A stretch of 64,000 bases of DNA from Escherichia coli. Lineage in GTDB: Bacteria > Pseudomonadota > Gammaproteobacteria > Enterobacterales > Enterobacteriaceae. The stretch is from NCBI RefSeq assembly GCF_003334305.1, contig NZ_QOWS01000007.1. One strand, given 5' to 3'. The position numbers were made by a program, and so were the translations under genes. Shown here piece after piece: positions 26,120 to 37,148 of the stretch. The notes beneath the pieces are model-generated. The model made no database searches and was not told the DNA's origin. It worked only from the letters and a program-made list of their open reading frames with translations. Every line of letters starts with the position of its first letter. Within the stretch, counting starts at the first letter, position 1.

Positions 26120-29732
<3,613 letters not shown>

Positions 29733-29738
29733 TGCTTT

Positions 29739-29770
29739 GCGGGCCGACGAGAAATGTCGGCCCGCATTAT
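29739..29770 (+). terminator. hairpin terminator between convergent ppx and pdeF
   Basis: 10-bp GC-rich stem gcgggccgac/gtcggcccgc followed by attattc. Confidence 0.4.
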
Positions 29771-32014
29771 TCAGGCACTTTCGCGAATGGGTTCGATTTC
29801 ATTCAGCGTATCAATTAACGGTTGCGGCTTACCAATAAGATAACCCTGCATATAATCGATCCCCAAAGAGAGCACCGCCTCGCGGATCTCTTCGTTTTCA
29901 ACGTACTCTGCCACTACCCGCATTTTCTTCATTCGCGCCAGGTGGCAAATCGATGCCACTATCTGATAATCCAGACTATTTGACACAATATTGCGGATAA
30001 AACTGCCGTCAATTTTAAGCAGATCGGCATTCACATTTTTAAGCCGCGCATAGCTGGCGTAGCCGGTGCCGAAATCATCAATCGCAATCTGGCAGCCTAA
30101 TTCCTGAAGATGCTGCAAGGTGATTTGCGCCTGCTTAACATTGGTCAGAGCATTACTTTCGGTGACTTCAAAAATAAGTTGCCACGCTTCAATCTGATAT
30201 TTATCCAGCAACTGACTGACTTCAACAGGAAAACGAGCCTGACATACCGAGGTTGGAGACAGATTAATAGCAAAACGGTGAGCGGGCATCTTCGCTCTGT
30301 TTTCAGCCATAAATTGCAGCGTATGCTCAATGACCCACATGTCGATACTCGACGATAAACCAAATTCGTGCGCGACCGGCAAGAAGCTATCGGGGCCGAT
30401 CAGTTCATCATTCTCACCTTTCATGCGCAGAAGAATTTCATGGTAAACATCACCACGCATACCGGTAATCGGCTGGGCCATCAGGAAAAAATGGTTGTGT
30501 TCCAGCGCCTGCTGTAGTCGATTCATCATCGCGACTTTATCTTTCAATTCGCGTTGCAAATACATTGCCCCGCGACGCTGCATATTTTCCGGGGCGTTGG
30601 TCACGATGGAAAGTTCGGCGACCGTATTTAGCTCTCCCAGCAGCAGGTAGATATGATTCACTGGCGAGCGCACATAGCAGTAACTGACGCCAATCTGCGG
30701 TTGCATCGGCATGCCATCCCAAAAGAAACGAAATTGCTTGAGATGGCTATCCAGTGCGGTAATGCGCTCCTGGTGCGATTCTGTATTCAGCCGCAGCGCG
30801 AGATCGTTACCCGAAAGCTGATAAACATCTTCACCCGGTTCCAGCAAGGGTGACAGCCAGTGAGAAAGTTTTTGCTTGTATTGAATCCGCAGCATGATGC
30901 CATAGTTCTTAACCAGCATTTCCATGCCAGGGATGCGTAAATAACAAAGCGCAGACCAGGGGGCATCACGCAACGCGCGATTCAGGGCGCGAACATTTGG
31001 CAGATGAACCACCGGGTCCACATACGCAAGCCGCTGAATGCGTCTGACTACCGCTCGCTGACGAGTTGCCAGTACAGCCATATAATTGACAATAAAAGAG
31101 AATACCAGATAACTGGAGGAGGTTATGGTCAGCTGCGTGGTATAGCCAGGATAAATGGGAATGTAATTTTGATAGCTGTGGATGCTGATCATCAACACGA
31201 CCGCCCAGAGCAGCGAAATCAGCTTATAACCATAGCGCATCGCTCCCCACATCATCAGGGGCAGCAATAATGACAAGGTATAATTGGTGCTAAAAATTGT
31301 GCTTTTTTCATTTAACGGCATGCATAACAGCAACAATAAAGCACCTAATGCCAGTAGCCAGAGCGCGAACTCTTTTTTGGTGACTTTGGCATCAACCTGC
31401 TGTTTTAATTGCGAATAATAGCTACGTAAATAAAATGGATTTCGCACTACCCGAATGATGAAGTAGCACAGCGGGACACCGATCAGATTACCCACCAGTA
31501 AGGCCTGATAATTGATTAAAGTCCCGAGGTTAAAAGGCATGACACCGACCAGATTTTCTCTGCTCGCCAGCAATCCTACAAATGCAGCAAACTGGAAAAG
31601 TATCAGAAACAGCGTTGCAGGAAACACTATCTGCCAGAATATACGCTGGGAAATTAAACGGGTATCACCATGTGAAACGTTGTTACGCCGGGGAGTAAAG
31701 ACCCTGTAACCGCCCCAACAGAGAATGATAATGATAATAAAATTAGCCGTTAATGAGAGCGTTTCGTAAAAACCCAGCTCTGCATATTTGCGGACAAAAA
31801 TCCCTAAGGTGATCCCTGGCAATGCCGCCCAGCTGAAAAACATCATCATGCTGATCATCAGTGCCAAAGGCAGATAAAAGAGAAAAACCTCACCGGAAGA
31901 AATATGCGCGAAAGTATTAATGTGGGCGAAAATGGGCAAGATTAAAGAAGGCAGGAACAGCGGAAGCCCCCACCATTTATCACGTATTTTTATATAAGTT
32001 GCATTCAGTTTCAT
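29771..32014 (-). CDS. pdeF: cyclic-di-GMP phosphodiesterase with N-terminal membrane sensor domain and EAL domain
   Basis: 747-aa ORF: N-terminal polytopic region, C-terminal EAL-type motifs (QIAIDDFGTGYASYARLK). Recognised as YfgF. Confidence 0.9.
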   Translation of the reverse strand: MKLNATYIKIRDKWWGLPLFLPSLILPIFAHINTFAHISSGEVFLFYLPLALMISMMMFFSWAALPGITLGIFVRKYAELGFYETLSLTANFIIIIILCWGGYRVFTPRRNNVSHGDTRLISQRIFWQIVFPATLFLILFQFAAFVGLLASRENLVGVMPFNLGTLINYQALLVGNLIGVPLCYFIIRVVRNPFYLRSYYSQLKQQVDAKVTKKEFALWLLALGALLLLLCMPLNEKSTIFSTNYTLSLLLPLMMWGAMRYGYKLISLLWAVVLMISIHSYQNYIPIYPGYTTQLTITSSSYLVFSFIVNYMAVLATRQRAVVRRIQRLAYVDPVVHLPNVRALNRALRDAPWSALCYLRIPGMEMLVKNYGIMLRIQYKQKLSHWLSPLLEPGEDVYQLSGNDLALRLNTESHQERITALDSHLKQFRFFWDGMPMQPQIGVSYCYVRSPVNHIYLLLGELNTVAELSIVTNAPENMQRRGAMYLQRELKDKVAMMNRLQQALEHNHFFLMAQPITGMRGDVYHEILLRMKGENDELIGPDSFLPVAHEFGLSSSIDMWVIEHTLQFMAENRAKMPAHRFAINLSPTSVCQARFPVEVSQLLDKYQIEAWQLIFEVTESNALTNVKQAQITLQHLQELGCQIAIDDFGTGYASYARLKNVNADLLKIDGSFIRNIVSNSLDYQIVASICHLARMKKMRVVAEYVENEEIREAVLSLGIDYMQGYLIGKPQPLIDTLNEIEPIRESA

Positions 32015-32365
32015 AGATGCTCAGCAGAATCCCCCACATCCTGAAGGAGGTGTATTCAGACAGGCATCCCACCTGACTTCGAATGATGATTATTCATCAC
32101 TATAGAGAGCATTGATTCTAAGTGTCATATGAAAGTTCCAATTGATATATATCAAACAAAATAACCCTGATTAATGAATTATTACGTTTATCATGTTAAT
32201 TCATCATTATTACATCATCATTGTAAATAATTAAATTAACTTCCATAACATTAAAATATGTATCCACTGACGCTTTTTTACATAACGAAGAATTGACCAT
32301 TTTGTCCTGTTGTGCCTTAATGTAAGTACCGTCCACAGCGTGGGACATACTTCAAGGAACCTTTT

Positions 32366-32557
32366 GTGAGTCAGGCAACCAGTATGCGAAAACGACACCG
32401 ATTTAACAGTCGCATGACCCGTATCGTACTGCTCATCAGCTTTATCTTCTTCTTTGGCCGTTTTATCTACTCGTCCGTCGGTGCCTGGCAGCACCATCAG
32501 AGCAAAAAAGAAGCTCAGCAATCCACACTCTCCGTCGAATCACCGGTACAACGTTAG
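32366..32557 (+). CDS. yfgG: small protein YfgG
   Basis: 63-aa ORF with one hydrophobic helix, in an AT-rich region between divergent pdeF and yfgH. Confidence 0.7.
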   Translation: MSQATSMRKRHRFNSRMTRIVLLISFIFFFGRFIYSSVGAWQHHQSKKEAQQSTLSVESPVQR

Positions 32558-32867
32558 CGGTTACCTTCTCCACTTTCACAGAACCTAACGGCACTTCGCT
32601 GTCGGATGCTTTTGCTCTTTGGAATTATCAAAGCGGCAGATATTCTTTCATCTTAAATTTTACGTCTTTGTCCTGACTGAGGTTTATCCTGTTTGGCTGC
32701 GAAATAAATATAAAATTAATATATATGTTGTAATGATATATTTTTATAAATTATTCCCTGCGTGAATTTTAATAAATTTAATCTATCCCTTTATACGCAA
32801 TACATTTACTTTCCTCTTTTGATGATCTTAAATGTCTTATTTTTCGTAATGTGTATAACAAGGAATA

Positions 32868-33386
32868 GTGATGAAATTTAAAAAATGTCTTCTGCCTGTG
32901 GCAATGTTAGCGTCATTCACTCTGGCAGGATGCCAGTCAAATGCTGACGATCATGCCGCCGATGTTTATCAAACCGATCAACTGAATACCAAACAAGAAA
33001 CTAAAACCGTTAATATTATTTCCATTCTTCCCGCAAAAGTTGCCGTAGACAACTCCCAAAATAAACGGAACGCACAAGCCTTCGGCGCGCTTATTGGCGC
33101 AGTCGCTGGCGGTGTTATCGGCCACAACGTCGGTTCTGGCAGCAATTCCGGAACGACGGCAGGGGCAGTTGGCGGCGGAGCTGTAGGCGCGGCAGTGGGT
33201 TCTATGGTGAATGATAAAACCTTAGTGGAAGGTGTTTCTTTAACATATAAGGAAGGCACCAAAGTGTATACCTCTACCCAGGTGGGTAAAGAGTGCCAGT
33301 TTACGACAGGTTTAGCCGTTGTTATTACCACAACGTATAACGAAACGCGTATTCAGCCAAATACTAAATGTCCTGAAAAGAGCTAA
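32868..33386 (+). CDS. yfgH: outer-membrane lipoprotein with glycine-zipper region
   Basis: 172-aa ORF with lipobox TLAGC and a Gly-rich zipper (GALIGAVAGGVIGHNVG). Confidence 0.85.
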   Translation: MMKFKKCLLPVAMLASFTLAGCQSNADDHAADVYQTDQLNTKQETKTVNIISILPAKVAVDNSQNKRNAQAFGALIGAVAGGVIGHNVGSGSNSGTTAGAVGGGAVGAAVGSMVNDKTLVEGVSLTYKEGTKVYTSTQVGKECQFTTGLAVVITTTYNETRIQPNTKCPEKS

Positions 33387-33401
33387 TAATCAGGAGGAGT
33401 C

Positions 33402-33941
33402 ATGAAGAAAGTTTTTCTTTGCGCCATCTTGGCCTCCTTAAGCTATCCGGCTATCGCCTCATCATTGCAGGATCAACTCTCTGCTGTAGCAGAAGCTGAA
33501 CAGCAAGGTAAAAATGAAGAGCAAAGGCAGCATGACGAATGGGTCGCGGAGCGCAACAGGGAAATCCAGCAAGAGAAGCAACGTCGCGCAAATGCCCAGG
33601 CCGCCGCTAACAAAAGAGCGGCAACGGCAGCGGCAAATAAGAAAGCTCGTCAGGATAAACTGGACGCCGAAGCCTCTGCGGACAAAAAACGCGATCAAAG
33701 TTATGAAGATGAGCTACGCAGCTTAGAGATTCAGAAACAAAAACTGGCGCTGGCAAAAGAAGAAGCCCGCGTTAAGCGAGAAAACGAATTTATCGATCAG
33801 GAACTGAAGCACAAAGCTGCGCAAACCGATGTGGTGCAATCTGAAGCTGACGCCAACAGAAATATGACTGAAGGCGGTCGCGATCTGATGAAAAGCGTGG
33901 GCAAAGCAGAAGAGAACAAATCGGACAGCTGGTTTAATTAA
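33402..33941 (+). CDS. yfgI: secreted charged coiled-coil protein YfgI
   Basis: 179-aa ORF with signal peptide and a highly charged Lys/Glu/Ala-rich body; AGGAGG RBS. Confidence 0.85.
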   Translation: MKKVFLCAILASLSYPAIASSLQDQLSAVAEAEQQGKNEEQRQHDEWVAERNREIQQEKQRRANAQAAANKRAATAAANKKARQDKLDAEASADKKRDQSYEDELRSLEIQKQKLALAKEEARVKRENEFIDQELKHKAAQTDVVQSEADANRNMTEGGRDLMKSVGKAEENKSDSWFN

Positions 33942-33979
33942 TCGATGTTAGTAACTTCAAGCCTATGATTCTTGAAGAT

Positions 33980-34014
33980 AAAAAACCCTCTGTAGTAACA
34001 GAGGGTTTTGTTCA
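33980..34014. terminator. bidirectional rho-independent terminator between yfgI and guaA
   Basis: aaaaaccctctg-tagtaa-cagagggttttgtt: perfect stem flanked by an A-run and a T-run. Confidence 0.55.
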
Positions 34015-34035
34015 TTCATAGTGCAGGGATTAAAA

Positions 34036-35613
34036 TCATTCCCACTCAATGGTAGCTGGCGGCTTGCCGCTGATGTCATACACCACGCGGGAAATACCGT
34101 TCACTTCATTGATAATGCGGTTGGAAACGCGACCGAGGAAATCGTACGGCAGATGCGCCCAGTGTGCGGTCATAAAGTCGATGGTTTCGACAGCACGCAG
34201 AGAGACAACCCAGTCATACTTACGACCATCGCCCATTACGCCAACGGAACGTACCGGCAGGAACACAGTGAACGCCTGGCTGACTTTGTCGTACAGGTCC
34301 GCTTTACGCAGTTCTTCAATGAAGATGGCGTCAGCACGGCGCAGCAGGTCACAGTACTCTTTCTTCACTTCACCCAGCACACGAACGCCAAGGCCTGGTC
34401 CCGGGAACGGGTGACGGTACAGCATGTCGTACGGCAGGCCCAGCTCCAGACCAATCTTACGCACTTCGTCTTTGAACAGCTCTTTCAGCGGTTCAACCAG
34501 GCCCATCTTCATCTCTTTCGGCAGGCCGCCCACGTTGTGGTGAGATTTGATGACGTGTGCTTTACCGGTTGCAGAAGCCGCAGATTCGATAACGTCAGGG
34601 TAGATGGTGCCCTGCGCCAGCCACTTCACGTCTTCCAGTTTCAGCGCTTCTTCATCGAATACTTCAACGAAAACGCGCCCGATGATTTTACGTTTTGCTT
34701 CCGGATCGTTTTCGCCAGCCAGCGCTGACAGGAAGCGATCTTCTGCCGGTACGTGAACAATGTTAAGACCAAAGTGATCGCCAAACATATCCAGAACCTG
34801 CTCTGCTTCGTTGAGACGCAGCAGGCCGTTGTCGACGAATACGCAAGTCAGGTTTTTACCGATAGCGCGGTGCAGCAGCATTGCGGTTACGGAGGAATCC
34901 ACACCACCAGAGAGGCCGAGGATGACTTTATCGTCGCCTACCTGCTCGCGGATGCGAGCTACAGCATCGTCGATAATTTTCGCTGGCGTCCACAGGGCTT
35001 CACACTGGCAGATATCACGCACAAAACGCTCCAGCATGCGCATACCCTGGCGGGTGTGAGTCACTTCCGGGTGGAACTGTACGCCATAGAAGCGTTTTTC
35101 TTCGTTAGCCATAATGGCAAACGGGCAGCTTTCGGTGCTGGCTACGGTGACGAAGTCGGACGGGATAGCGGTAACTTTATCGCCGTGGCTCATCCAGACA
35201 TCGAGCAGCGGTTTACCGTCTGCGGTCAGCGCATCTTCGATACCGCGAACCAGTGCGCTGTCGTTTACGACTTCAACCTGCGCGTAGCCAAATTCACGTT
35301 CGTTAGAGGCTTCAACGTGACCGCCCAACTGCATTGCCATGGTCTGCATGCCATAGCAAACGCCGAATACCGGTACGCCTGCTTCAAAGACATACTGCGG
35401 CGCACGCGGGCTGTTTTCTTCGGTGGTGCTTTCCGGGCCGCCGGAAAGAATAATGCCGCTTGGATTGAAGTCACGAATTTGTGCTTCTGTCACATCCCAC
35501 GCCCACAGTTCGCAGTAAACACCCAGCTCACGCACGCGGCGCGCAACCAGTTGAGTGTACTGAGAACCGAAGTCCAGAATGAGGATGCGATGCTTATGAA
35601 TGTTTTCCGTCAT
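34036..35613 (-). CDS. guaA: GMP synthase (glutamine-hydrolysing)
   Basis: 525-aa ORF recognised as GuaA ([22 protein letters not shown]...). Confidence 0.95.
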
Positions 35614-35681
35614 TGACGCTTATTCCGAGGCAAGTGAAACAGATAATATAAATCGCCCGACATGAAGTCGGGCGAAGAGAA

Positions 35682-37148
35682 TCAGGAGCCCAGACGGTAG
35701 TTCGGGGACTCTTTAGTAATGGTCACGTCGTGAACGTGGCTTTCCTGAATGCCCGCACCGCTGATACGTACAAACTCCGCTTTAGTACGCAGTTCGTCGA
35801 TAGTACCACAGCCGGTCAGACCCATACAGGAGCGCAGGCCGCCCATCTGCTGGTGAATGATCTCTTTCAGGCGACCTTTATAAGCTACGCGACCTTCGAT
35901 ACCTTCCGGCACCAGTTTGTCGGCAGCGTTATCGCTCTGGAAATAACGGTCAGAGGAACCTTTGGACATCGCGCCCAGGGAACCCATACCACGGTAAGAT
36001 TTGTAAGAACGGCCCTGGTAGAGTTCGATTTCACCCGGAGATTCTTCAGTACCCGCCAGCATGGAACCTACCATCACCGCGCTTGCGCCAGCGGCGATAG
36101 CTTTGGCGATGTCGCCGGAGAAGCGAATACCACCATCTGCGATAACCGGAATACCGGTGCCTTCCAGGGCTTCAACTGCGTCAGCAACGGCAGTGATCTG
36201 CGGAACACCTACGCCAGTAACGATACGAGTCGTACAGATAGAACCAGGGCCGATACCGACTTTAACCGCGCTGCAACCAGCTTCTGCCAAAGCGCGTGCA
36301 CCTGCAGCTGTTGCCACGTTGCCGCCGATGATTTGCAGATCCGGATATTTAGCACGGGTTTCACGGATACGCTGCAAAACGCCTTCTGAGTGACCGTGGG
36401 AGGAGTCGATCAGCAGAACGTCAACGCCAGCGGCAACCAGCGCGTCAACACGCTCTTCGTTACCCGCACCTGCGCCAACTGCAGCACCAACACGCAGACG
36501 GCCTTGCTCGTCTTTACAGGCGTTCGGTTTACGTTCCGCTTTCTGGAAGTCTTTCACGGTGATCATGCCGATCAGGTGGAATTCGTCATCAACCACCAGC
36601 GCTTTTTCAACGCGTTTTTCGTGCATTTTTGCCAGCACCACTTCACGGGCTTCACCTTCACGCACGGTGACCAGACGCTCTTTCGGCGTCATGTAAACGC
36701 TAACCGGCTGGTTCAGGTCGGTAACAAAACGCACGTCACGACCGGTGATAATACCCACCAGTTCGTTTTCTTCGGTAACGACCGGATAGCCCGCAAAACC
36801 GTTACGCTCAGTCAGTTCTTTCACTTCGCGCAGCGTCGTGGTTGGCAGAACAGTCTGCGGATCAGTCACCACACCAGATTCGTGTTTTTTCACACGGCGA
36901 ACTTCTTCTGCCTGGCGTTCAATGGACATGTTTTTGTGGATAAAGCCGATACCGCCTTCCTGAGCCAGAGCAATAGCCAGGCGCGCTTCCGTTACGGTAT
37001 CCATTGCTGCGGAAAGCATAGGGATATTCAGACGAATAGTTTTCGTCAGCTGGGTGCTGAGGTCAGCAGTATTCGGCAGAACGGTAGAATGAGCAGGAAC
37101 GAGGAGAACGTCGTCAAACGTCAGAGCTTCTTTAGCGATACGTAGCAT
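35682..37148 (-). CDS. guaB: IMP dehydrogenase
   Basis: ORF 35682..37217; start trimmed to [18 protein letters not shown] (488 aa). Confidence 0.93.

Follow-up and report, generated by a model that had tools for sequence, protein, structure and literature searches.

The two AT-rich spacers on either side of yfgG in Escherichia coli are most probably regulatory regions whose AT tracts are covered by H-NS, together with StpA, and where access of FNR to the pdeF (yfgF) promoter is limited; we place the probability of this reading at roughly three in four. H-NS occupancy of the locus, FNR binding, the rise in occupancy by FNR in a strain carrying delta-hns and delta-stpA, and sigma70 and sigmaS occupancy at yfgG are all on record in published genome-wide data. 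Positions refer to the window, that is, the whole stretch of 64,000 nucleotides that was analysed. The locus reads ppx, pdeF, then in divergent orientation yfgG-yfgH-yfgI, and guaA, an order with which the K-12 annotation agrees; it is a core region of E. coli, found in 5424 of 5426 complete genomes, and the gene identities given in the original prediction are correct. Its main components are as follows.

29771-32014, minus strand: pdeF (yfgF), gene
32015-32365, no strand: spacer 1, divergent pdeF/yfgG regulatory region, 351 bp, 34.2% GC
32366-32557, plus strand: yfgG coding sequence, 63 aa, annotated Ni/Co stress response protein, 49.5% GC
32558-32867, no strand: spacer 2, yfgG-yfgH intergenic region, 310 bp, 31.3% GC
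32868-33386, plus strand: yfgH, gene
33402-33941, plus strand: yfgI, gene

The claim that both spacers are AT-rich was upheld by a sliding-window GC calculation, with 34.2% and 31.3% GC against 52.3% in the window and 49.5% in the yfgG coding sequence. Throughout the 64 kb, 200-bp windows below 33% GC were confined to these two spacers (minima 24.5% and 23%), and the string originally quoted as an example (32179-32240, 17.7% GC) lies inside the AT-rich core of spacer 1. Within the initial 50 kb of the corresponding K-12 sequence, 19 further intergenic regions reach 50 bp or more and average 42% GC; beside them, the spacers ranked second and third lowest in GC, being by far the longest among the low-GC regions. 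AnTm tracts of at least 5 nt occurred at 14 and 23 per kb in the two spacers, which is 2-3 times the density of 6.9 per kb for the window as a whole. As for the divergent pdeF and yfgH promoters that had been proposed, the divergence is real, but the partner of pdeF is yfgG, with which yfgH is co-directional. The spacers are ordinary promoter regions of a core enterobacterial locus, and since the H-NS coating already appears in published genome-wide maps, the observation is real and already known.

Spacer 1 holds two promoters and the AT-rich core between them.

32142-32155, no strand: FNR box, perfect consensus TTGATatatATCAA = TTGATATATATCAA, read from the sequence and FNR-bound in ChIP-seq
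32115-32120, minus strand: pdeF -10 hexamer TAGAAT, read from the sequence and named as the -10 in PMC3718329
32293-32321, plus strand: yfgG promoter, -35 TTGACC, 17-bp spacer, extended -10 TGcCTTAAT, TSS at about 32328
32160-32290, no strand: AT-rich core separating the two promoters, covered by both H-NS ChIP-chip regions

FNR, the principal known regulator of the locus, had been overlooked in the original prediction. The spacing between the FNR box and the TAGAAT hexamer is 28 nt, and the architecture is no different from that of class II FNR promoters, with a perfect TTGAT-N4-ATCAA box about 28 bp upstream of TAGAAT, as published for yfgF; what is unusual is the context, namely a strong divergent promoter 220 bp away and the H-NS cover. 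According to Lacey (2010), as relayed in PMC3718329, the box is centred at -41.5 of the yfgF promoter and FNR activates yfgF; from this spacing, the pdeF TSS would lie at about 32107-32108. FNR binding at the yfgF box was detected by ChIP-seq (Myers et al., 2013; PMC3688515, Tables S5 and S6), the centre of the published peak falling at about 32200 of the window, and in Table S9 of the same study yfgF is an FNR peak without FNR-dependent expression change in glucose minimal medium. The position of the box is constant in all aligned genera, where the -10 reads TAAAAT, TACAAT or TAGAAT at the same position. A simple sigma70 scan found 4 sites versus 4.0 in shuffled sequences, that is, no excess; it recovered ATGACA-18-TATAGT, listed for yfgF by Shimada et al. 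(2014; PMC3946193), which was rejected as the FNR-dependent pdeF promoter, as the latter uses TAGAAT.

On the opposite side, TTGACC-17-CTTAAT was predicted for yfgG by Shimada et al. (2014), and the GAATTGACC and TGTGCCTTAATGT elements of this promoter are invariant in an alignment of four genera. At this promoter lie a sigma70 ChIP-seq peak (2627279, height 11932) and, with a TSS at 2627275, a sigmaS ChIP-seq region; they map to about 32329-32333 of the window. Upstream of the -35 there is a conserved palindrome (ACATtaaaatATGT in E. coli at about 32248-32261; AACATTAATTAATGTT in Kluyvera), for which no convincing match to the Zur, Fur, MntR, NsrR, ArcA or Nac consensus was found by eye.

The core is poorly conserved in sequence across genera, and a 100-bp core of 18-30% GC is kept in 37 of 37 metagenomic spacers. 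The length of spacer 1 is likewise kept, at 341-353 bp in the 37 metagenomic variants and 341-354 bp in 13 of 14 protein-selected loci from Escherichia, Enterobacter, Phytobacter and Kluyvera, the exception (L018) being a locus where the pdeF start is not placeable. The pdeF-yfgG pair and spacer 1 are syntenic and conserved in at least four genera, and are thus ancestral.

Spacer 1 also contains the following open reading frame.

32196-32348, minus strand: 50-aa ORF, PGAP 'hypothetical protein', in many E. coli genomes

This ORF could in principle be a hidden small protein gene, given that it is annotated in many RefSeq E. coli genomes and is intact in several Escherichia species. Nevertheless, it runs antisense to a strong promoter, overlaps the conserved yfgG promoter and 5' UTR, lacks a recognisable RBS context and is missing from the curated K-12 annotation; outside Escherichia, tblastn yielded fragments of 27-40 aa at 42-55% identity or none, and the aligned DNA contains indels. 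A genuine gene is exceedingly improbable here, and the ORF was rejected as probably spurious on account of the promoter overlap, the K-12 absence, the fragmentary matches and the indels.

The H-NS ChIP-chip regions of Myers et al. (2013; Table S3) extend over 2624400-2628963 aerobically and 2626274-2628408 anaerobically, and were placed on the window with a coordinate offset checked with three FNR boxes.

29454-34017 (aerobic) and about 31328-33462 (anaerobic), no strand: published H-NS ChIP-chip region, Table S3 of Myers et al. (2013) mapped onto the window

When mapped, the aerobic region spans the block from pdeF to yfgI in full and the anaerobic one spans both spacers, with 45.0% and 41.6% GC, respectively, against 51-53% in the flanks. 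The yfgF/yfgG spacer is, in addition, marked 'HNS' (SELEX) in Table 1 of Shimada et al. (2014), and the proposed H-NS occupancy is borne out by these two data sets, the evidence for H-NS at this locus being genome-scale throughout. The supplements of Srinivasan 2015 do not mention these genes. The extended AT-rich tract characteristic of an H-NS-bound region was found in both spacers (31-34% GC over 310-351 bp, cores of 23-25%), and the high-affinity H-NS motif TCGATAAATT (Lang 2007) was not enriched relative to the window, spacer 2 giving two hits, each with 2 mismatches, and spacer 1 giving none. The AT-rich cores may be the sites of H-NS nucleation.

In delta-hns delta-stpA, the FNR ChIP-chip peak of the yfgF/yfgG region goes up to 1.68 from 0.35 (Myers et al., 2013; Table S7), nearly five-fold (log2 scale average), and yfgF is found in the O2-dependent gene table of this mutant (ratio 0.23), being absent from the wild-type O2 table. 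The title of Table S11 is given with 'only in' the mutant in the paper and differently in the file; that pdeF induction is specific to the mutant thus depends on its absence from Table S12. In Table S6, the overlap column for nucleoid-associated proteins (Fis, H-NS, IHF) reads 'None' at the yfgF FNR box, in conflict with the H-NS region of Table S3 of the same paper. For the silencing by nucleoid proteins that had been suggested, the gain of FNR occupancy and the O2 table of the mutant speak in favour as regards pdeF; yfgG, on the contrary, is clearly expressed although it lies inside the H-NS region, with a strong sigma70 peak, a sigmaS peak and a mapped TSS at its promoter, which counts against its silencing and against our preferred reading.

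In the mechanism that we propose, spacer 1 carries back-to-back promoters about 220 bp apart, the FNR-activated one of pdeF and the strong sigma70/sigmaS one of yfgG, separated by the core of 18-30% GC, whose composition and length, rather than sequence, are what is conserved. H-NS, with StpA, would cover the AT-rich tracts in vivo, spreading aerobically over the slightly AT-rich pdeF-yfgI block and contracting anaerobically to the spacers, and would restrict FNR access and weaken the anaerobic induction of pdeF. The yfgHI genes may be damped by H-NS as well, and the two spacers may be bridged by it.

A simpler account would take the AT-richness as plain promoter-bearing non-coding DNA (UP elements, -10 regions, easy melting, insulation of divergent promoters), H-NS being incidental and of little regulatory effect. 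Intergenic DNA is itself of low GC (mean 42%, with one other region at 30.6%), RNA polymerase holoenzyme binds the spacer without added factors (Shimada et al., 2014), the yfgG promoter is strongly occupied by sigma70 within the H-NS region, and the constancy of spacer length points to a geometric constraint on the two promoters. This account is at odds with the gain of FNR occupancy and the listing of pdeF O2-dependence in delta-hns delta-stpA, and with the spacers holding the most extreme 200-bp windows in 64 kb, and we regard it as improbable.

More doubtful still, and in our view very improbable, is a reading of the spacers as upstream activating regions with intrinsic curvature and bound Fis, the curvature and Fis binding having been part of the original prediction. 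Curvature was computed with a Bolshoy/Trifonov wedge model, the numbers being approximate. A-tracts are enriched, and a bend peak at about 32804-32829, just upstream of the yfgH promoter, reaches the 99.6-99.8th percentile of the window; however, dinucleotide-preserving shuffles were at least as bent in a fraction of 0.82 for spacer 1, which is thus less bent than its shuffles, and 0.12 for spacer 2, not a significant excess, and AA/TT lacked 10-11 bp periodicity in the spacers. After the comparison with shuffles, intrinsic curvature was set aside as a distinguishing feature, and Fis binding found no support either, the entry at the FNR site in Table S6 of Myers et al. (2013) showing no Fis overlap.

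Returning to partial H-NS masking of FNR, the closest parallel is found in the H-NS-masked FNR sites designated 'Category 7' by Myers et al. (2013; e.g., hlyE, ttdR), which likewise have an FNR box in an activating position inside an extended H-NS region; yfgF/yfgG is present in the supplementary tables of that study and never discussed there. Unlike these sites, FNR is already detectably bound here in the wild type (ChIP-seq peak), so the masking is partial, and in contrast to hlyE, where SlyA antagonises H-NS, no H-NS antagonist is known at yfgF/yfgG. The upstream and downstream regulatory elements of proU and bgl offer a second comparison, with two AT-rich tracts, here about 550 bp apart, and a short expressed gene between them within one H-NS-bound region. 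Such an arrangement would be consistent with bridging, the likeness being one of resemblance only, and the intervening DNA, yfgG, differs in being transcribed from a strong promoter.

Spacer 2 would be where the yfgG transcription unit ends and where the promoter of the yfgH-yfgI module lies.

32589-32614, plus strand: weak intrinsic-terminator-like hairpin 3' of yfgG, 5-bp stem followed by a U-rich tail, from a consensus scan only
32805-32833, plus strand: candidate yfgHI promoter TTTACT-17-TTAAAT followed by RBS AAGGA, from alignment
32868-33941, plus strand: yfgH-yfgI pair, patchily distributed two-gene module, GC3 0.42 and 0.48

The terminator-like hairpin is conserved in part only, within Escherichia. 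The candidate assignment of TTTACT-17-TTAAAT as the yfgHI promoter is suggested by its hexamers and RBS, which do not vary in alignment A2, not even in MGYG-HGUT-00110, a distant Enterobacteriaceae isolate in which the upstream neighbour of yfgH is a different gene. An FlhDC SELEX peak has been reported for the yfgG>yfgH spacer (PMC9962212).

The patchy distribution of this module raises the possibility that the AT-rich DNA, above all spacer 2 and yfgHI, is a horizontally acquired remnant under xenogeneic silencing by H-NS, a reading that deserves consideration even though we hold it to be unlikely. The yfgG-guaA slot varies in cargo by genus, being occupied in Enterobacter, Kluyvera and Phytobacter by other genes (an MscS-like gene, LysR plus MFS, or LysE/AraC); yfgH adjoins yfgG in only 1 of 37 metagenomic loci; orthologues of yfgHI are present in S. 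Typhi and not in S. Typhimurium (PMC11619404); the GC3 of yfgH is 0.42 versus 0.53-0.61 in its neighbours; and the H-NS region covers yfgHI. Yet yfgHI is core within E. coli, the compositional deviation of both genes is mild (47-49% overall GC), and island hallmarks were not found, with no tRNA in 27000-37000, no flanking direct repeats and no integrase; nor would such an origin fit spacer 1 and the pdeF-yfgG pair, given their synteny in at least four genera.

As a separate observation, the 5' leader of pdeF carries a conserved structured element with GGA-loop hairpins.

32015-32107, minus strand: pdeF 5' leader, about 93 nt, with a 5' stem-loop, from alignments A1, A3, A4 and A5, folds and stem tabulation
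32057-32077, minus strand: leader block, mRNA GUCAGGU[G/U]GGAUGCCUGUCUG, conserved in alignments
About 32031-32052, minus strand: GGA-loop hairpin of the leader, from folds and stem tabulation

In the alignments, GCAUCU (GGCAUCU) directly before the pdeF AUG is invariant. With RNAalifold on MAFFT alignments, the invariant hairpin was the only one recovered, and stems were tabulated sequence by sequence because variable-length hairpins had been misaligned. In this tabulation, GGA stands in the loop of the second hairpin in each of the 38 unique leaders, whose stems come in 8 or more variants, and the block hairpin also has GGA in its loop, so that the leader shows the pattern sought in CsrA-regulated leaders, namely two or more GGA motifs, by preference in loops, one of them near the SD or overlapping it. 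No match to an Rfam covariance model above chance was obtained in 31000-34000 of the window, and none at E <= 10 for the Enterobacter leader (L010, 3780-4020).

We tentatively propose, at somewhat less than even odds, that this leader is an undescribed conserved cis-regulatory RNA adding a post-transcriptional switch to the control by FNR and H-NS. It would comprise a 5' stem-loop whose structure is kept while its sequence varies; a 20-nt block GUCAGGUUGGAUGCCUGUCU that would form its own GGA-loop hairpin or pair with GGCAUCU, thereby sequestering the ribosome-binding region; a second hairpin with a putatively covarying stem and a loop always bearing GGA; and an AUG within the block that would open a mini-ORF (MPV-stop in E. 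coli). The switch would work either by CsrA binding or by translation under the control of a uORF or of structure. By analogy, CsrA may control this leader: the CsrA-repressed leaders of the c-di-GMP genes ycdT/dgcT and ydeH/dgcZ (Jonas et al., 2008, as relayed in PMC5635695) share with it two conserved GGA loops, here separated by 25-28 nt and near the start codon, whereas the GGA flanks in the pdeF leader depart from the ANGGA pattern. Neither pdeF nor its synonym yfgF is named in the CsrA CLIP-seq supplements for E. coli (Potts 2017), although this gene is silent aerobically.

In E. coli, PdeF serves as the anaerobic c-di-GMP phosphodiesterase, and its FNR promoter lying under H-NS would account for the protein being undetectable aerobically and for the weak FNR-dependent induction of pdeF in some media. 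As this point is already contained in published genome-scale tables, its confirmation adds little. The additions made here are modest, namely the conservation across Enterobacteriaceae of the length and AT core of spacer 1, but not of its sequence, the variable yfgG-guaA slot and the probably spurious PGAP ORF, and are useful mainly for designing promoter fusions at the pdeF-yfgG locus; the conserved pdeF leader is the sole element of this region that might yield something new.

The 1.1 kb around the AT-rich DNA flanking yfgG was matched in 5424 of 5426 complete Escherichia coli genomes, at 95-100% identity and on the chromosome every time; relative to K-12, the window shows nothing but scattered substitutions. 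In K-12 the genes are annotated in the order ppk, ppx, pdeF (yfgF, b2503, minus strand), yfgG, yfgH, yfgI (plus strand), guaA and guaB, and the following features are considered here:

29771-32014, minus strand: gene pdeF
32015-32107, minus strand: pdeF mRNA leader, also found in orthologous loci L010, L011-L020 and L083-L162
32120-32115, minus strand: TAGAAT, 28 nt downstream of the FNR box
32142-32155: perfect FNR box, TTGATATATATCAA, read from the sequence
32293-32321, plus strand: yfgG promoter TTGACC-17-CTTAAT with a TG extended -10, predicted by Shimada 2014 (PMC3946193)
32366-32557, plus strand: gene yfgG
32868-33386, plus strand: gene yfgH
33402-33941, plus strand: gene yfgI

The partner diverging from pdeF is yfgG, so the original prediction was imprecise in pairing pdeF with yfgH. 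Spacer 1 (pdeF/yfgG, 32015-32365) and spacer 2 (yfgG-yfgH, 32558-32867) have 34.2% and 31.3% GC, against a window mean of 52.3%, and only they contain 200-bp windows below 33% GC within the 64 kb (minima 24.5% and 23%); the string originally quoted as AT-rich, 32179-32240, has 17.7% GC. The mean of the other intergenic regions here is 42% GC, and the two spacers rank 2nd and 3rd lowest of 19, being by far the longest among the low-GC ones. The minima and this ranking confirm that the AT-richness is real and goes beyond the AT bias that non-coding DNA commonly has.

Within E. coli, coverage of the AT-rich region falls below 80% in about 50 of the 5426 genomes, and at least one, NZ_CP067342.1 (H22), carries an IS1A insertion in the equivalent of 32015-32867. 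A 50-aa ORF at 32196-32348 (minus strand), annotated by PGAP in many E. coli as 'hypothetical protein' WP_000017552.1, overlaps the yfgG promoter and 5' UTR, is absent from the K-12 annotation and is not kept outside Escherichia; it is probably a spurious annotation artefact. Between the convergent yfgI and guaA, a 21-nt inverted repeat (33973-34018; 81% complementary, 4-nt loop) looks like a bidirectional terminator.

Published genome-scale data were placed on the window by subtracting 2594945 from U00096.2 coordinates (+/-1), a conversion checked with three FNR boxes. For yfgG, a sigmaS ChIP-seq study reports a peak at 2627100-2627399 and a TSS at 2627275 (PMC4447067), and anaerobic sigma70 ChIP-seq gives a strong peak at 2627279 (Myers 2013; PMC3688515); this sigma70 peak and the sigmaS TSS convert to ~32329-32333, exactly 7 nt downstream of the yfgG -10. 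Such strong sigma70 and sigmaS occupancy contradicts the proposed silencing of yfgG. About 40 bp upstream of the yfgG -35, at ~32245-32263 and centred near -75 of the TSS, lies a conserved palindrome, AACATTAATTAATGTT in Kluyvera and a degenerate ATAACATTAAAATATGTAT in E. coli, with equivalents in loci L013-L020; it may be an operator for some regulator of the Ni/Co-stress gene yfgG, and comparison by eye with known operator consensus sequences gave no convincing match.

For pdeF, the evidence runs in favour of H-NS. The H-NS ChIP-chip regions of Myers et al. 2013 (Table S3; PMC3688515), 2624400-2628963 aerobically and 2626274-2628408 anaerobically, convert to ~29454-34017, the entire pdeF-yfgI block from ppx to guaA, and to ~31328-33462, covering the pdeF 5' part, both spacers, yfgG and yfgH; their GC contents are 45.0% and 41.6%, respectively, versus 51-53% in the flanks. 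In the same study, the average FNR ChIP-chip peak at yfgF/yfgG rises from 0.35 in the wild type to 1.68 in the double mutant delta-hns delta-stpA, flagged as significant (Table S7), and yfgF appears among the O2-dependent genes of that mutant with a ratio of 0.23 (Table S11), where values below 1 denote anaerobic induction, as judged from other entries and the text; the wild-type list (Table S12) is without yfgF and has yfgG at 0.45, and in glucose minimal medium yfgF is among the FNR peaks without FNR-dependent expression change (Table S9). An H-NS genomic-SELEX site is also marked in the yfgF/yfgG spacer (Shimada 2014; PMC3946193), and aerobic PdeF protein is below detection (PMC5635695). 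Taken together, the binding regions, the SELEX site, the mutant FNR peak and yfgF ratio, and the undetectably low aerobic PdeF level support the H-NS proposal for pdeF. Myers 2013 is internally in conflict at this point: by Table S3 the yfgF/yfgG FNR box falls in the anaerobic H-NS region, whereas Table S6 lists its NAP overlap as 'None' (PMC3688515). An IHF ChIP-chip region lies inside the pdeF coding sequence (~31287-31566; Table S4).

The remaining parts of the original prediction fared less well. No evidence was found for Fis binding, the Table S6 entry at the FNR box being 'None'. Curvature was calculated with a wedge model (approximate parameters) against dinucleotide-preserving shuffles of each spacer; a bend peak near 32804-32829 ranks among the highest 0.4% of the window and nothing stands out in spacer 1, and shuffles bent as much in 12% of trials for spacer 2 and 82% for spacer 1. 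AA/TT has no helical periodicity in the spacers, and intrinsic curvature is not supported by these calculations; nor do the spacers show enrichment of the Lang high-affinity H-NS motif. By this modelling, the distinguishing feature is composition, not phased A-tracts. Among the strongest bends predicted for the window is one at ~31715-31733, in the pdeF 5' part.

Guided by protein, a scan that took a single genome from each species recovered orthologous ppx-pdeF-yfgG loci from species of Escherichia, from Enterobacter, Phytobacter and Kluyvera, and from one further Enterobacteriaceae isolate. The pdeF-yfgG spacer measures 341-354 bp with 34-41% GC in 13 of the 14; in the exception, L018 (Kluyvera genomosp. 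3), the pdeF start is not cleanly placeable and the apparent spacer is 647 bp. All 14 carry the FNR box, at the same offset in the 13. Across genera, the alignment shows conserved blocks at the pdeF leader, the -10, the FNR box, the yfgG -35 and extended -10, and the yfgG 5' UTR, with a poorly conserved AT-rich centre between them. A further 37 unique metagenomic spacers (341-353 bp, 36-43% GC) all contain a 100-bp core of 18-30% GC, so that core composition and length are conserved and sequence is not, a pattern that fits DNA-protein coating or promoter geometry. This comparison marks spacer 1 as ancestral, not foreign. Spacer length is held in 50 of 51 orthologous loci (all but L018) around a central ~100 bp unconserved in sequence, which suggests that either the spacing of the divergent promoters or their helical phase is under constraint.

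The yfgG-guaA interval (32558-34035; compared in L010, L011, L013, L015, L017 and L018) is a variable slot. In Escherichia its occupant is yfgHI; Kluyvera has a 292-aa MscS-like gene there, to which isolate MGYG-HGUT-00110 adds yfgHI; Enterobacter has LysR plus MFS, and Phytobacter has genes of the LysE and AraC types. Promoter-proximal DNA of the yfgG-adjacent gene has 25-30% GC in Kluyvera and MGYG-HGUT-00110 (there also at yfgH), and no AT-rich tract was seen upstream of the slot genes in Enterobacter and Phytobacter. Within E. coli, the yfgHI pair belongs to the core; just one of the 37 metagenomic loci has yfgH near yfgG, and S. Typhi has yfgHI orthologues whereas S. Typhimurium does not (PMC11619404). 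GC3 is 0.42 in yfgH and 0.48 in yfgI, with higher values in the neighbours, and neither tRNA nor flanking repeats were found around the pair. The promoter-proximal 70 bp of spacer 2 (TTTACT-17-TTAAAT and RBS) are kept in every locus that has yfgH, including where the gene upstream is a different one, and we propose TTTACT-17-TTAAAT as a candidate yfgHI promoter. That yfgHI was acquired long ago along with the AT-rich DNA upstream of it is plausible, though unproven.

The pdeF leader contains a 21-nt block (32057-32077; mRNA GUCAGGU[G/U]GGAUGCCUGUCUG) that is invariant save one position in the protein-selected loci. A metagenome DNA-pattern scan with its non-Escherichia form yielded 45 loci in which a PdeF N-terminus follows downstream; the remaining matches were an unrelated coding sequence or due to chance. 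Because the 45 loci were chosen by the block itself, they are uninformative on its conservation and informative on the leader's other parts. Each of the 38 unique leaders has GCAUCU (or GCGCCU) directly 5' of the AUG, together with a hairpin, at least 4 bp long, whose loop contains GGA; the stem of this hairpin covaries, with at least 8 variants, among them U-A to A-U exchanges. Most leaders have a 5' stem-loop of variable sequence (mean fold z -1.65). When folded singly, most non-Escherichia leaders pair UUGGAUGCCUG with the AUG-adjacent (C)GGGCAUCUA, forming a long-range helix that would hide the ribosome-binding region and that competes with the block's own GGA-loop hairpin; RNAalifold recovers the block hairpin only. 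The invariant GGCAUCU just 5' of the AUG is an alternative pairing partner for the block, and a mini-ORF (MPV-stop in E. coli) starts from an AUG within the block. The leader matched no Rfam family. CsrA sites typically present two GGA-loop hairpins near the start codon, and the pdeF leader resembles them in having two such hairpins 25-28 nt apart, close to its start codon; hypothetically, the leader may contain a CsrA site or act as a translational switch. The CsrA CLIP-seq supplements of Potts 2017 do not include pdeF, though the gene is silent aerobically.

Overall, the AT-rich observation is real, and genome-scale data in the literature bear out the H-NS part of its interpretation. As a promoter region in a core operon neighbourhood, the locus is ordinary and well mapped; the conserved pdeF leader is the sole item that might repay more work.
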